Source: Escherichia coli (GTDB lineage Bacteria > Pseudomonadota > Gammaproteobacteria > Enterobacterales > Enterobacteriaceae). From it: a stretch of 64,000 bases of DNA. Both the position numbers and the translations under genes were made by a program. Position 1 is the stretch's first letter, and each line of letters starts with the position of its first letter. Below are positions 1 through 50,053 of this stretch, one piece after another. The DNA is taken from the NCBI RefSeq assembly GCF_044324875.1, contig NZ_CP172185.1. One strand, written 5' to 3'. The notes beneath the pieces are model-generated. The model saw nothing but the letters and a program-made list of their open reading frames with translations. It ran no database searches and had not been told where the DNA came from.

Positions 1-984
<984 letters not shown>

Positions 985-985
985 A

Positions 986-1720
986 TCAGTCGCGCACTTT
1001 GTCCGCTTTCTCCCGGGCTTCCCGCTCGAGAGAGAAAATAATCCGCTGTAATTGCCGCTCCACCGTCGGGCTGACGTTAAGAAAACGGAAGCTCAGACGG
1101 GGAGTGGTGATGGTTTCATTCTTGCCATCAATCACTTTGCGCTCGCTGATTGAGATTAACTGGGCGTCAAAGTGAAAAACACCCCATTGCCCCATGTTGA
1201 CTTCAATCTGAGCGAAGCGCATGCCTTCGTGCAATCCGGCAGGCTTTGCTGTTTCCAGTAATGCGCCCATGCCGCCTAACGACAAATCATACAGGCGGAA
1301 ACGTAACGTACTGTTATCCGCCAGTTTGGTCTGGCAAAAATAAGGCGGATGGAGTGGGGCGGAGATGCGGAAATATCGGCGTCGTTGTACAAACCACAAG
1401 GTGGGAGGCGGTACGGTAATAAATGCCGGAAGCTGCAAGTATTCACTCTGCTGTAGTTGTTCAACAGTAAATTCGACTTTCGCGCCCTGGGTTTCGGCGG
1501 TAATGGTAATGTGCTGCGCCTTTAACACAGCGTTGTTATCTTCGGCTTGACTGCCGAAATCCAGCACCAGTTTATCCGGGGTTATTGCCAGTATTTTGCT
1601 GATCAGCTGCCCGCCATTCCAACTGATACGCAAAGGAATTGCGGCTTTGTGCAAATCGCGTAACACGCCCAGGACGGCTAACGGATTTTGTTTCAGGAAC
1701 TGCTCATGGTAATGACTCAC
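986..1720 (-). CDS. ycgR: Flagellar brake protein YcgR (c-di-GMP binding, PilZ domain)
   Basis: 244-aa ORF recognised as YcgR (MSHYHEQFLKQNPLAVLGVLRDL...); convergent with emtA with a 1-bp gap. Confidence 0.92.
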   Translation of the reverse strand: MSHYHEQFLKQNPLAVLGVLRDLHKAAIPLRISWNGGQLISKILAITPDKLVLDFGSQAEDNNAVLKAQHITITAETQGAKVEFTVEQLQQSEYLQLPAFITVPPPTLWFVQRRRYFRISAPLHPPYFCQTKLADNSTLRFRLYDLSLGGMGALLETAKPAGLHEGMRFAQIEVNMGQWGVFHFDAQLISISERKVIDGKNETITTPRLSFRFLNVSPTVERQLQRIIFSLEREAREKADKVRD

Positions 1721-1755
1721 GCGGAAAAACTCCTGACTGACAAACTGTCTTTGGT

Positions 1756-1781
1756 TTATCGGTCACAGTTAACAAAACTTA
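1756..1781 (-). promoter_or_regulatory. Sigma-28 (FliA) type promoter upstream of ycgR
   Basis: Reverse complement reads TAAGTTTT-(11 nt)-CCGATAA, close to the FliA consensus TAAAGTTT-N11-GCCGATAA, about 35-60 nt upstream of the ycgR start; fits ycgR being a late flagellar gene. Confidence 0.7.
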
Positions 1782-1920
1782 ATACAAATGCGTGAATATT
1801 TTTTACATGTTGTTCTTAAATCAGCCGACATACGCCCAGCATCGATTCCGCCCTTGCCTATACTTAGAGCGTTGACGTAAGCATTTCTTGCGTCCGATTC
1901 ATCGAAACGAGGGCCTGAAC

Positions 1921-2175
1921 ATGGGAATTATTGCCTGGATTATTTTTGGCCTGATAGCCGGCATTATCGCCAAGCTAATCATGCCGGGGCGTGATGGTGG
2001 TGGATTTTTCCTGACCTGTATTCTCGGGATAGTCGGTGCGGTGGTCGGCGGCTGGCTGGCGACCATGTTTGGCATTGGCGGCTCCATCAGCGGTTTTAAT
2101 TTGCACAGCTTCCTGGTGGCGGTAGTGGGCGCTATTCTGGTGCTGGGCGTATTCCGCCTCCTGCGAAGAGAATAA
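1921..2175 (+). CDS. ymgE: Small inner-membrane protein, transglycosylase-associated (GlsB/YeaQ/YmgE) family
   Basis: ORF 1888..2175; the ATG at 1921 is preceded by GAGGG and gives an 84-aa glycine-rich two-helix membrane protein (MGIIAWIIFGLIAGIIAKLIMPG...). Confidence 0.85.
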   Translation: MGIIAWIIFGLIAGIIAKLIMPGRDGGGFFLTCILGIVGAVVGGWLATMFGIGGSISGFNLHSFLVAVVGAILVLGVFRLLRRE

Positions 2176-2224: not shown

Positions 2225-4195
2225 TCAGAACGTATACTCGATACCTGCCCAGAAATTGCGACCTTCTTCAATAAACCCTTCACTGTAGGCATATTTGGTA
2301 TCAAACAGGTTATTGACCGACGCATTGACGCTGAAGCCATGACCTAAGGTGTAATCGGCTCGAATGTGGGTCACCGCAAAACCGGCGGCTTTTTGTGAAC
2401 CGTCACTGTTGCTGTAGCTGGAGGAACGCGCCTCTTCCGACAGCGTTACGCTTAACGGCTCCCACGGTTTGAGAGTCATCCATGCGGTCATTGTCTGCGT
2501 TGGCAGATCGGTTATCTTGCCGATGTCTTTGCGTTTGGCGTCAGCGTGGATCAGGGCGTAGCTCAATCCTACATCCAGTATATTGCTGATTTTCCCCTTA
2601 ATACCGGCATCCAGACCGCTGTAATCCACCGTGCCGCTGTTCTGATTTTGAATGGTATCGGCATCGATATTGTGCGAGAGGATGGCATCACTCACCCGGT
2701 TATAGTAAACGCTGACCTCAAACCCCCAGTCGTGCGTGAAGGCACCATTCCAGGTTAAATCCACCCCGCGCGCGCGTTCCGGTTTGAGCTGCGGGTTAAC
2801 AATCGCTATCTGGTTATACGCAGGTTTGGACGTGGTATAGCGTTCTTTCAGCGTCGGAAAGCGTGTGCGGTCATAGTACGAAAGCGCCAGCGTGTCTTCA
2901 TTGGCAAAGTGGTATTTCCCCATCACCTGCCAGTTAAAAGCTGACTGATTGTTGTCGTCATAATGGGTGATGCTTCCATCTTTCTCATGTTTTTTCGCTT
3001 CTACGCTATCGCGCCAGTCATAGCTGATTCCAGCCACGACATCGACATTATCGGCAGCAGCCCATTGATATTCACTGGCGAGCGACCAGGTACGATCTTC
3101 ATAGCGATCGTAAGCGGCGTGCGGCGCACCTTTTTCCCGGTGTACGTCATCTTTCCAGTTAACGGCAAACGACAACAGATCGTTTTCACGCACATCGGCT
3201 GCCAGTTGTAACCCGGCACCGTCGCTGTAATCGGAATAATGGCTGTAGCTGCCTTTTTTATTTTTCAAATCAGCCAGCGAGTTGTACATCATTAGCGTAT
3301 TTTCAAAGGTGTCGCGATACAGCCGACTTTTCAGGGTAAAACGATCGTTTAGTTGGGTCGTTCCCTGATAATAAAAACTTTCTTTGTCATACTCTGGCCA
3401 CTGCCAGTAGCGTGATTTCTGACCACTATTTCCACTGTATGGCGGGTTATCTTTTTCACCATCCTGCTTAATGTAAGTCAATGTGTATTCATCGTTTTCG
3501 CGTGGTGTAAAACCGAGCTTCACAATGCCGCGTTTATCATCAGCCGATGAATTAATCATCTTGCCGTGTTTGCCTGCAATATCATTATTTACACCATGCG
3601 GCAGGCCGAGAAAATCCTGCTTTAGCTGGCTACCGCTGACTTGCAAATACCCCAGATCGCTGCTGGCGGCAAATGAAGCATGCATATCGTAGGCATTGTC
3701 CTGGCTACGGCTCCATCCCTGGCGATATCCCAGATTTGCTTCCAGAGGTTTTGTTGGCTTCTGGGTGGTGATATTAATGGCTCCGCCCATCTGATTAGGC
3801 CCCTGAAGCAGCGACGAATACCCTTTGGAAACTTCAACTGCCCCCAAATTGTTGGTCAGAATCCGCGCCAGATCGAGGTTGCCGTCATAGGGAACATAAA
3901 TGGGCACACCGTCGAAATAGACCGGCACCTGACGACTATCAAAGCCACGAACTTTGACCTGTTCTTCGTTGCGGCTACCTGACTTTTGCAGCACCACGCC
4001 GGGGACGACACTTAATGCCTGAGCGACATTCTGTTTATCCAGGGCCTTCATGGTGGGTTGATCGAGAACGGTGGTCGTCGTCGATGATACCGGACTGGAC
4101 CATACGGTCAGCGTGTCACTCTCCTGAGCCGCTACGGCCTGCTGGGTAAAGGCAAGTGATAATGCTGTGCAGAGATAACGTTTTTTGAGTCTCAT
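2225..4195 (-). CDS. TonB-dependent outer-membrane receptor (substrate unknown)
   Basis: ORF 2225..4216; the likely start is the ATG at 4195 (the 4216 start is TTG). It has a signal peptide (MRLKKRYLCTALSLAFTQQAVAAQ), a TonB-box-like DTLTVW, a plug and long beta-barrel, and a C-terminal aromatic residue (…AGIEYTF). No counterpart at this position in K-12 as I remember it. Confidence 0.85.
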   Translation of the reverse strand: MRLKKRYLCTALSLAFTQQAVAAQESDTLTVWSSPVSSTTTTVLDQPTMKALDKQNVAQALSVVPGVVLQKSGSRNEEQVKVRGFDSRQVPVYFDGVPIYVPYDGNLDLARILTNNLGAVEVSKGYSSLLQGPNQMGGAINITTQKPTKPLEANLGYRQGWSRSQDNAYDMHASFAASSDLGYLQVSGSQLKQDFLGLPHGVNNDIAGKHGKMINSSADDKRGIVKLGFTPRENDEYTLTYIKQDGEKDNPPYSGNSGQKSRYWQWPEYDKESFYYQGTTQLNDRFTLKSRLYRDTFENTLMMYNSLADLKNKKGSYSHYSDYSDGAGLQLAADVRENDLLSFAVNWKDDVHREKGAPHAAYDRYEDRTWSLASEYQWAAADNVDVVAGISYDWRDSVEAKKHEKDGSITHYDDNNQSAFNWQVMGKYHFANEDTLALSYYDRTRFPTLKERYTTSKPAYNQIAIVNPQLKPERARGVDLTWNGAFTHDWGFEVSVYYNRVSDAILSHNIDADTIQNQNSGTVDYSGLDAGIKGKISNILDVGLSYALIHADAKRKDIGKITDLPTQTMTAWMTLKPWEPLSVTLSEEARSSSYSNSDGSQKAAGFAVTHIRADYTLGHGFSVNASVNNLFDTKYAYSEGFIEEGRNFWAGIEYTF

Positions 4196-26256: not shown

Positions 26257-26948
<692 letters not shown>

Positions 26949-32459: not shown

Positions 32460-32994
32460 GGATACAAAAAGGGCCGCAGGCTGTTACCCCTGCGGCCGGT
32501 TTCGGGCGCATATTGCCATCACGGCAGCCTGACGCCCGTTTTCACCTTACTTCCGGTTACGCCACCAGCTGACAATCACTGCGGTAATAATCCCCGCCAG
32601 GATCGGTGCCGCCAGGTCGTGCCAGAAAATCATGGCAAACTGCGCGAGCGTCATATAGCCGCCTTGTTGTAATGACAACAATTTGCGGCTATTCTTGAAT
32701 TGTTCTGGTTCAAGATTAGCCCCCGTTCTGTTGTCAGGTTGTACCTCTCAACGTGCGGGGGTTTTCTCTTTCCAGCAACCAATGCCACCAGGGATAAAGC
32801 CCCCGCAACATTGCGCCTCACCGGATAACGCCGGCTTGGTGTGGATACTACGACTCAATTCATCTTCACTTCATCCCTGAAATGTTTGCAATGAAGAGTG
32901 CATTCCGGTTTTTCAACAGCTGTTACAGTCGTTTCATGAGTGCTCTGAATGATGCTTCCAGCTCGGGTTGCCAATATTTACTTGTGGAAGAGAT
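32460..32994. repeat. Long direct repeat unit 1 (Ldr/Rdl type I toxin-antitoxin module)
   Basis: A ~535-bp unit repeated nearly identically at ~32995-33530 (e.g. AAAAAGGGCCGCAGGCTGTTACCCCTGCGGCCGGTTTCGGGCGCATATTGCC at 32461 and 32996). Each unit contains a 35-codon ldr ORF on the minus strand. Confidence 0.85.
32547..32654 (-). CDS. ldr: Ldr-family small toxic membrane peptide (35 aa)
   Basis: Reverse-strand ORF MTLAQFAMIFWHDLAAPILAGIITAVIVSWWRNRK, recognised as an Ldr toxin; too short for the ORF track. Confidence 0.8.
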   Translation of the reverse strand: MTLAQFAMIFWHDLAAPILAGIITAVIVSWWRNRK

Positions 32995-33530
32995 AAAGAC
33001 AAAAAGGGCCGCAGGCTGTTACCCCTGCGGCCGGTTTCGGGCGCATATTGCCATCACGGCAGCCTGACGCCCGTTTTCACCTTACTTCCGGTTACGCCAC
33101 CAGCTGACAATCGCTGCGGTAATAATTCCCGCCAGGATCGGTGCTGCCAGGTCGTGCCAGAAAATCATGGCAAACTGCGCGAGCGTCATATAGCCGCCTT
33201 GTTGTAATGACAACATTTTGCGGCTATTCTTGAAGTGTCTGGTTTCAAGATTAGCCCCCGTTTTGTTGTCAGGTTTTACCTCTCAACGTGCGGGGGTTTT
33301 CTCTTTCCAGCAACCAATGCCACCAGGGATAAAGCCCCCGCAACATTGCGCCTCACCGGATAACGCCGGCTTGGTGTGGATACTACGTCTCAATTCATCT
33401 TCACTTCATCCCTGAAATGTTTGCAATAAAGAGTACATTCCGGCTTTTCAACAGCTGTTGCAGTGGTTTCGTGCAGGTTCTGGTACAGGCTCGCAATTCT
33501 GATTAACAACCTGTTCAGGTAGTATGAAGA
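32995..33530. repeat. Long direct repeat unit 2 (Ldr/Rdl type I toxin-antitoxin module)
   Basis: Second copy of the ~535-bp unit; a handful of substitutions relative to unit 1. Confidence 0.85.
33082..33189 (-). CDS. ldr: Ldr-family small toxic membrane peptide (35 aa), second copy
   Basis: Reverse-strand ORF MTLAQFAMIFWHDLAAPILAGIITAAIVSWWRNRK; differs from copy 1 by one residue (V to A). Confidence 0.8.
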   Translation of the reverse strand: MTLAQFAMIFWHDLAAPILAGIITAAIVSWWRNRK

Positions 33531-34694: not shown

Positions 34695-34963
34695 TATGGT
34701 TATCCCTTTGCAGATGAATTTATCGAAAATGTAAAAAATAGGTAGGAAAAATAACAGAAAGTGTCTGGATATCGGTAACATTTTACGAATTTTTACCCCG
34801 CTGTCGATTTTTTACTCATCGGGCCATAAAAATAAGCAATGCGTTTAGACAATGTTTGTTTTAGCGTTTCTTAAGAAGAGTCTGACATGAAAATTCTTAT
34901 GTTTTGGCAAGAGTGGATATTGTTGACCACACTTAATGTTCAACTTTGTAAAAGGAGTCAACG

Positions 34964-49430: not shown

Positions 49431-49964
49431 GTGATGGTGGTTGGGGAAGGATTATTCAGCGCTGCGCGCTTCACCCTTCGGGTCGTTGCCTGCGGCAACG
49501 CTCTCTCGCTGGCGCTCGAGTCGAACCTTGGTCGAAGCTTCTCATCCTTCCCCGCTTGGGCAGAATATTTAATTACGGATTCGTTTGAGAGTTCAGGGAC
49601 TTTTGAAAGTGATGGTGGTGGGGGAAGGATTACTCAGCGCTGCGCGCTTCGCCCTTCGGGTCGTTGCCTGCGGCAACGCTCTCTCGCTGGCGCTCGAGTC
49701 GAGCCTTGGTCGAAGCTTCTCATCCTTCCCCGCTTGGGCAGAATATTTAATTACGGATTCGTTTGAGAGTTCAGGGACTTTTGAAAGTGATGGTGGTGGG
49801 GGAAGGATTACTCAGCGCTGCGCGCTTCGCCCTTCGGGTCGTTGCCTGCGGCAACGCTCTCTCGCTGGCGCTCGAGTCGAGCCTTGGTCGAAGCTTCTCA
49901 TCCTTCCCCGCTTGGGCAGAATATTTAATTACGGATTCGTTTGAGAGTTCAGGGACTTTTGAAA
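49431..49964 (-). repeat. Three tandem 178-bp repeats downstream of tRNA-Tyr (rtT-type units)
   Basis: Units begin at 49431, 49609 and 49787 (exact 178-bp period); units 2 and 3 are identical, unit 1 has a few substitutions. Each begins with a copy of the tRNA-Tyr 3' end (TGGTGGTGGGGGAAGGATT). Confidence 0.85.
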
Positions 49965-49968
49965 GTGA

Positions 49969-50053
<85 letters not shown>

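Follow-up and report, generated by a model that had tools for sequence, protein, structure and literature searches.

The promoters of the class 3 flagellar genes of Escherichia coli, such as tar, tsr, fliC and flgMN (consensus TAAAGTTT-N11-GCCGATAA), and the promoter of the phosphodiesterase gene pdeH/yhjH are read by the sigma factor FliA (sigma-28), and they share two 8-mers, an 11-nt spacer between them, a distance of 6 nt from the -10 element to the transcription start, and complete dependence on FliA. The promoter in front of ycgR likewise has two 8-mers, the same spacer length and the same dependence, and the same distance to a start that is predicted, and differs from the class 3 sites in three respects. 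First, position 2 of its -35 element is T instead of A, which is unique among the 52 published sites and is conserved in orthologues; second, its -10 element begins with A instead of G, a feature confined to E. coli and the species closest to it; third, its transcription start has been inferred and not mapped. The ycgR product binds c-di-GMP and brakes the flagellar motor via MotA, FliG and FliM (review PMC13432727).

The closest described system is ycgRp of E. coli K-12 (RegulonDB ECK120009895), and the experimental evidence for this promoter comes entirely from that strain. The exact 28-mer TTAAGTTTTGTTAACTGTGACCGATAAA lies under a FliA ChIP-seq peak assigned to ycgR (Fitzgerald et al. 2014, Table 2; PMC4183435), which is centred on 1243779 and has a fold-above-threshold (FAT) score of 67; when the sites of that study are ranked, this score is tied fifth of 52 with yhjH (also 67), so that the two genes show comparable occupancy. 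In the same work ycgR RNA has a value of 104 in motile wild-type cells and drops significantly, to 0, when fliA is deleted, and qRT-PCR places it at 0.022 of the wild-type level in the deletion (PMC4183435). In vitro, genomic SELEX with the RpoF (FliA) holoenzyme yields a peak between ycgR and ymgE (Shimada et al. 2017; PMC5493296), and in the corresponding table for RpoD the entry for ycgR is blank, with no sigma-70 promoter proposed (Shimada et al. 2014; PMC3946193).

We analysed the same spacer in a 64,000-nt stretch of E. coli DNA (contig NZ_CP172185.1), which is called the window below. Positions 1721-1920 of the window very probably form a divergent ycgR/ymgE control region, in which two promoters stand back to back without overlapping and are served by different alternative sigma factors. 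On the ycgR side the feature is the already known ycgRp promoter and not a new member or variant of its class: the 28-mer, the gene, the orientation and the neighbours emtA and ymgE are the same as in K-12. The reading of the raw sequence recovered a real and experimentally documented promoter. A c-di-GMP-dependent flagellar brake in the late flagellar regulon is textbook biology, and neither this nor the further points below alter current understanding.

Gene content of the locus and its relation to K-12

According to the list of open reading frames, the first 3000 positions of the window hold, after the end of ldcA, emtA (plus strand), ycgR (minus strand) and ymgE (plus strand), and the next gene after ymgE encodes a TonB-dependent receptor (minus strand). 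The two genes that flank the spacer are as follows.

986..1720, minus strand: ycgR coding sequence, an open reading frame with a GTG start and 244 aa, annotated in RefSeq; c-di-GMP-binding flagellar brake
1921..2175, plus strand: ymgE coding sequence, an annotated open reading frame of 84 aa; membrane protein of the GlsB/YeaQ/YmgE family

Of 5,426 complete E. coli genomes searched by megablast, 5,422 contain a match to positions 900-2300, with identities between 95 and 99.8%. The flanking genes are named ycgR (flagellar brake protein) and ymgE in more than 5,300 of these genomes, and the RefSeq annotations of the best match and of MG1655 agree on both names. The YcgR translation contains the PilZN (PF07317, 2e-25) and PilZ (PF07238, 1e-8) domains together with both c-di-GMP motifs (RRRYFR for RxxxR and DLSLGG for DxSxxG), as expected of a YcgR/FlgZ-type protein, and proteins 100% identical to it are annotated as flagellar brake protein YcgR. 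YmgE carries the Pfam domain Transgly_assoc. The gene identities that the initial annotation had read from the letters alone are therefore right, both by the names used in more than 5,300 genomes and by the domains of the two proteins.

Two records in the databases are related to the YcgR protein itself. Many entries call YcgR as 280 or 290 aa, with N-terminal extensions that read through the promoter region; as the arrangement GGAG-N9-GTG at the start is invariant in 11 species (listed below), these longer calls are likely gene-calling artefacts. In addition, a 381-bp contig (NZ_FXUZ01000104.1) of an assembly named 'Staphylococcus cornubiensis' encodes a fragment that is 95% identical to E. 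coli YcgR, and it is almost certainly a contamination of that assembly.

The 200-bp spacer 1721-1920 differs from that of K-12 MG1655 in two positions, both on the ymgE side: 1847 is T (C in K-12) and 1876 is C (T in K-12). The first 126 bp in front of the ycgR start codon are unchanged, with no difference on the ycgR side, and the spacer is otherwise that of MG1655, which makes the K-12 data directly applicable; the FliA occupancy, the FliA-dependent RNA and the in vitro holoenzyme binding described above were all obtained with an identical ycgR promoter. Coordinates are converted by adding 1,242,807 to the window position for NC_000913.3, and those of NC_000913.2, the older version used in the literature, are 777 lower.

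No Rfam family was found in or near the ycgR/ymgE spacer. Elsewhere in the window, two rdlD antitoxin RNAs lie at 32702..33302 (plus strand) in the ldr/rdl locus, which has three copies in K-12, and three tandem RtT repeats lie at 49435..50053 (minus strand) beside a tRNA in the tyrT/tyrV region.

The FliA promoter of ycgR

The elements of the ycgR promoter and leader are the following; positions relative to the start refer to the predicted +1.

1775..1782, minus strand: sigma-28 (FliA) -35 element TTAAGTTT, with 7/8 matches to TAAAGTTT, at -33 to -26
1764..1774, minus strand: 11-nt spacer TGTTAACTGTG, fixed in length and free in sequence
1756..1763, minus strand: sigma-28 -10 element ACCGATAA, with 7/8 matches to GCCGATAA, at -14 to -7
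1749, minus strand: predicted ycgR start (G), corresponding to NC_000913.3 1244556 and NC_000913.2 1243779
1721..1748, minus strand: remainder of the ycgR 5' UTR (29 nt in all), which contains the Shine-Dalgarno sequence AGGAG at 1734..1730, 9 nt before the GTG

In the standard register the motif is TTAAGTTT-N11-ACCGATAA (1782..1756, minus strand), which matches TAAAGTTT-N11-GCCGATAA in 14 of the 16 positions, and the end of its -10 8-mer is separated from the ycgR GTG by 35 nt on the correct strand. The motif had initially been noted as TAAGTTTT-N11-CCGATAA (1756..1781, minus strand); its presence upstream of ycgR on the minus strand, its bases and its spacing hold, and it is unique in the window, but the register of that -35 box is one base off the usual convention. 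The string TAAGTTTTGTTAACTGTGACCGATAA, at 1756..1781 (minus strand), occurs nowhere else in the window and was absent from all 100 dinucleotide-preserving shuffles. When up to two mismatches to the 16-base consensus are allowed, the ycgR site is still alone in the 64 kb (0.05 expected; five of 100 shuffles had one), and it also remains alone when three are allowed (0.78 expected).

Weight matrices present a less clear-cut picture. They were derived from the 52 FliA ChIP-seq motifs of Fitzgerald et al. 2014 with ycgR left out, and were restricted to 17 informative columns. These leave-one-out matrices give the ycgR site 12.4-16.7 bits and, according to the training set used, the 6th, 4th or 2nd place in the window; random sequence of 64 kb holds 2.8, 0.46 or 0.16 sites that score as well, and within 200 nt of one strand 0.0003-0.004 would be expected. 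The scan for sigma-28 promoters, which the initial annotation had named as a check, thus detects the site and does not single it out. An earlier matrix that used all 28 columns, spacer included, left the site outside the top 10 (51-site version) or ranked it 5th (24-site version), and was replaced by the informative-column matrices. The modest score of the ycgR site is due to T at motif position 2, which occurs in none of the 51 other published FliA sites and costs 5.7 bits. Because of this deviant and conserved base in the -35 element, a FliA promoter that is among the strongest is underrated by standard weight matrices.

Similar or better scores are reached by sites in the gene for the TonB-dependent receptor (3047..3074), in lolB (26529..26556) and in front of chaA (34768..34795, 74 nt from its start). 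The last of these (minus strand) is a sigma-28-like TAAAAATT-N11-ACCGATAT, which is oriented towards the chaA start and is identical in K-12; two of the three informative-column matrices score it above the ycgR site, and it is missing both among the 52 FliA ChIP-seq sites and in the portion of the RpoF genomic SELEX list that covers this region, where it would fall between entries 37 and 38. The site at 3047..3074 (minus strand, TGAATATC-N11-GCCGATAA) stands in sense orientation inside the receptor gene (2225..4195), in DNA that is absent from K-12, and is the top or second-best matrix match in the window; it might belong to the intragenic FliA sites, of which many have been described in E. 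coli. Considering the matrix ranks and the higher-scoring chaA site that is apparently unbound, the sequence alone is suggestive and not decisive for ycgR, and it is the context and the experiments that carry the case.

This raises the question of whether the sigma-28-like motif could be a chance match, or a site where FliA binds ineffectively, with ycgR being read from another promoter in the spacer, for example one of sigma-70 type. Such a reading draws on the frequency of equally good matrix scores in random sequence, on the apparently unused chaA site, and on the finding that numerous E. coli FliA sites lie within genes or are non-productive (PMC4183435). However, the loss of all ycgR RNA in the fliA deletion and the place of the site among the strongest ChIP peaks in K-12 are difficult to reconcile with it. 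No sigma-70-type promoter for ycgR was found here, as a simple scan for sigma-70 promoters and terminators returned nothing in 900-2400, or has been proposed for it. The conservation of the site among orthologues points in the same direction.

The alignment of orthologous promoters comprises 11 species from eight genera, and three of the 11 sequences are from Escherichia. The ycgR loci collected for comparison were those of Escherichia sp. E1V33, E. whittamii, E. albertii, three Citrobacter, one Enterobacter, Salmonella, Lelliottia, Kosakonia and Scandinavium. Mean column identities in the 11 species are as follows.

-35 8-mer: 0.94
11-nt spacer between the boxes: 0.55
-10 8-mer: 0.94
G of the predicted start and the A next to it: 1.00
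remaining spacer sequence, between the ycgR and ymgE promoters: 0.56

Both boxes and their spacing are kept, with no indel between them in any of the 11 promoters, whereas the sequence of the spacer between them drifts. In every species the best sigma-28 matrix match is the one in the aligned position on the sense strand, 35-40 nt before the GTG; the orthologous sites score 11.5-22.3 bits and the runner-up never exceeds 6.4 bits, with a lead that is always greater than 5 bits. CCGATA is invariant in the -10 element, and nine species have the consensus G as its first base (GCCGATA). The differences between species are mostly toward the consensus, as in the -35 element TAAAGTTT of Escherichia sp. 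E1V33 and E. whittamii. Ten of the 11 species keep T at motif position 2. The motif is therefore conserved upstream of ycgR orthologues in flagellated relatives. Among E. coli genomes, 3,300 carry the 66-nt promoter segment unchanged and 2,032 carry it with one to three differences, and in the three variants that were sampled the changes are confined to bases outside both boxes.

Taken together with the K-12 experiments, this footprint largely refutes the explanation by a chance match or by another promoter, which we regard as extremely improbable. The membership of ycgR in the flagellar regulon, as initially claimed from the motif, is borne out by FliA ChIP-seq, by the loss of ycgR RNA upon fliA deletion, by RpoF SELEX and by the phylogenetic footprint. 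A FliA promoter places ycgR among the late (class 3) flagellar genes, and the brake would be made only in flagellated cells.

A separate observation concerns E. coli strain 167 (NZ_CM132939.1, about 195..347), in which IS903B is inserted directly downstream of the ycgR -10 element, after ...CCGATAAAC. The insertion parts the FliA promoter from any remaining ycgR and would represent a natural loss of brake expression.

Predicted transcription start, leader and upstream block of ycgR

The start of ycgRp in RegulonDB (1243779, minus strand) carries the evidence codes HIPP/AIPP, which stand for an inferred and not a mapped position (Fitzgerald et al. 2014, Table S3; PMC4183435), and it deserves a direct check. 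The centre of the FliA ChIP-seq peak coincides with this coordinate. As the peak centre corresponds to window position 1749 and the centre of the motif to approximately 1770, the distance between them fits the published observation that peak centres fall about 25 nt downstream of the motifs. No mapped start for ycgR or ymgE was found in the accessible literature: Cappable-seq supplements gave no match to the start coordinates or to the gene names, a study of run-off transcription in vitro covers sigma factors other than sigma-28, and ycgR is not mentioned in the text of Zhao et al. 2007.

The geometry of FliA promoters with mapped starts also bears on the position. Among the seven start-mapped promoters (evidence code TIM), the distance from the -10 8-mer to +1 is 6 nt in six (fliC, tsr, tar, fliAp2, fliLp2 and ves) and 5 nt in aer. 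In ycgR the -10 element is followed by the six nucleotides ACCAAA and then by G. The 6-nt spacing therefore places the ycgR start, in standard geometry, most likely at the G in 1749, and both this G and the A that follows it are invariant in the 11 species. From this start the transcript would have a 29-nt leader with AGGAG before the GTG; GGAG and GTGAG are also invariant in the 11 species. The predicted fold of the leader is not significantly stable (z = -1.8; nine of 200 shuffles fold as well), and a structured leader was rejected for this reason.

On the basis of these elements the expression of ycgR could be described as follows. FlhDC would turn on fliA, and once the hook-basal body is complete the anti-sigma factor FlgM would be exported and FliA freed. 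The FliA (sigma-28) polymerase would then read TTAAGTTT (1782-1775) and ACCGATAA (1763-1756), 11 nt apart, and the YcgR made in flagellated cells would bind c-di-GMP and brake the motor. This logic would mirror that of pdeH/yhjH, which has the same kind of promoter.

Conservation does not end at the -35 element.

1783..1804, minus strand: conserved block directly upstream of the -35 element, with CATTTGTA at -41..-34 and an A6 tract at -55..-50

In the 11 species column identity is 0.90 at -34..-41 and 0.72 at -42..-60, compared with 0.56 in the rest of the spacer, and no equivalent block was seen by eye upstream of other FliA promoters in RegulonDB. Considering its position and conservation, the block is possibly an UP element or a regulator site. 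If so, FliA might be necessary and not sufficient for ycgR expression, and the block could explain the heavy occupancy of a promoter whose -35 element departs from the consensus in one base: T at position 2 is found in none of the 51 other FliA sites, yet it is kept in ten of the 11 orthologues, and the site is tied fifth of 52 by ChIP. The A tract at -55..-50 stands where UP elements stand, a position known from the rrnB P1 UP element. On the other hand, the RpoF holoenzyme alone binds the spacer in vitro, which argues that no extra factor is needed for binding; no known regulator motif was recognised in 1783-1804; and the conservation of the block could partly be carried over from close relatives, given that three of the 11 sequences are from Escherichia. 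A contribution of the block beyond FliA is consequently a tentative proposal, somewhat unlikely in our estimation, and recognition of the two boxes by FliA itself is preferred as the account of the ycgR promoter.

The ymgE promoter

The initial annotation stated that the same 200 bp must hold the promoter of ymgE. This is reasonable, and the statement is sound because the upstream gene is divergent and the RpoD holoenzyme binds the spacer in genomic SELEX, from which a sigma-70 promoter was assigned to ymgE only (PMC3946193); a conserved RpoS-type -10 element adds to it. Two placements of the promoter have to be compared.

1858..1866, plus strand: candidate ymgE -10 element of RpoS type, C(-13)-TATACT-TA, with a predicted start near 1871 and a 5' UTR of about 50 nt
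1854..1881, plus strand: alternative sigma-70 guess, TTGCCT-16-TGTAAG in K-12 and TTGCCT-16-CGTAAG here (table of Shimada et al. 2014)

The candidate CTATACTTA is unique in the window, where 0.17 would be expected. In all nine species that have ymgE beside ycgR there is exactly one TAYRCT hexamer, 55-70 nt before the ATG; in all nine the TATACT-type hexamer has C at -13, and in eight TTA comes next. The best -35 candidates, 16-18 bp upstream of TATACT, have at most two of six matches to TTGACA. RpoS-dependent promoters reportedly combine C at -13 with a -10 element TATACT(TAA). The ymgE candidate takes the same form, with C-TATACT-TA, an A/T-rich discriminator and no good -35 element, and departs from this consensus in that the hexamer is followed by TAG instead of TAA in E. 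coli, whereas TAA is present in most other genera.

The gene is also reported to be RpoS-controlled: ymgE and its Salmonella orthologue STM14_2173 are tabulated as such, second-hand from array studies (PMC5437024, Table 1), and ymgE rises on entry to the stationary phase in O157:H7. The dependence on RpoS could be indirect; ymgE is absent from the main text of the RpoS regulon papers that were examined, and no direct RpoS binding data were found for it.

Alternatively, ymgE could be transcribed mainly from the sigma-70 pair TTGCCT (1854-1859)-16-TGTAAG (1876-1881), with a start near 1888, and CTATACTTA would then not be a -10 element. The authors who assigned this hexamer pair showed that the RpoD holoenzyme alone binds the spacer in genomic SELEX (PMC3946193), and TTGCC is conserved in Escherichia, Citrobacter and Salmonella. 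However, TTGCC overlaps TATACT and directly abuts it, which means that its conservation may reflect an extended -10 region. The proposed -10 hexamer is CGTAAG in the present strain, and C at 1876 is also found in E. albertii, E. whittamii and Escherichia sp. E1V33, which makes the T of K-12 the derived state; furthermore, TGTAAG is not conserved in Citrobacter, Salmonella, Lelliottia, Kosakonia or Scandinavium, while C-TATACT is present in all nine species. The sigma-70 scan reported nothing at this pair, which is below its threshold. RpoD and RpoS recognise very similar -10 elements, and for this reason SELEX binding cannot discriminate between the two proposals. Transcription of ymgE mainly from the sigma-70 pair is therefore considered unlikely.

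Our comparison, which goes beyond the accessible literature, suggests that the conserved RpoS-type -10 element CTATACTTA is most likely the ymgE promoter and explains ymgE better than the published sigma-70 guess. From the sequence, ymgE would be read on the plus strand from C-TATACT-TA (1858-1866), with a poor -35 element as is typical of RpoS-dependent promoters. Its start would probably be found close to 1871, some 122 bp away from that of ycgR, which would leave the two promoters back to back and non-overlapping.

RegulonDB also lists a computational sigma-28 promoter for ymgE, 'ymgEp7' (plus strand, window position 1748). It was rejected as a candidate: ChIP-seq lends it no support, and the best antisense matrix match in the spacer reaches 5.6 bits.

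The flagellar regulator FliZ is reported to bind sequences that resemble RpoS -10 elements. It is conceivable, though quite improbable, that the ycgR/ymgE spacer works as one coupled switch between motile and stress conditions, in which the upstream element and the conserved T boost or gate the FliA polymerase, FliZ targets the RpoS-type -10 element of ymgE, and the two genes are expressed in opposition. Two separately recognised promoters, of FliA type for ycgR and of RpoS type for ymgE, are the preferred reading.

Apart from positions 1847 and 1876, the locus differs from that of K-12 in what follows ymgE. In the window, 2225..about 8650, between ymgE and treA, is occupied by genes for the TonB-dependent receptor, ModD, a SAM methyltransferase and an iron-type ABC transporter (coordinates of this block past 5075 were taken from collinearity with NZ_CP042899.1), and K-12 has ycgY in its place. 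Since the TonB receptor gene adjoins ymgE in Salmonella and Scandinavium as well, K-12 may have lost this block.
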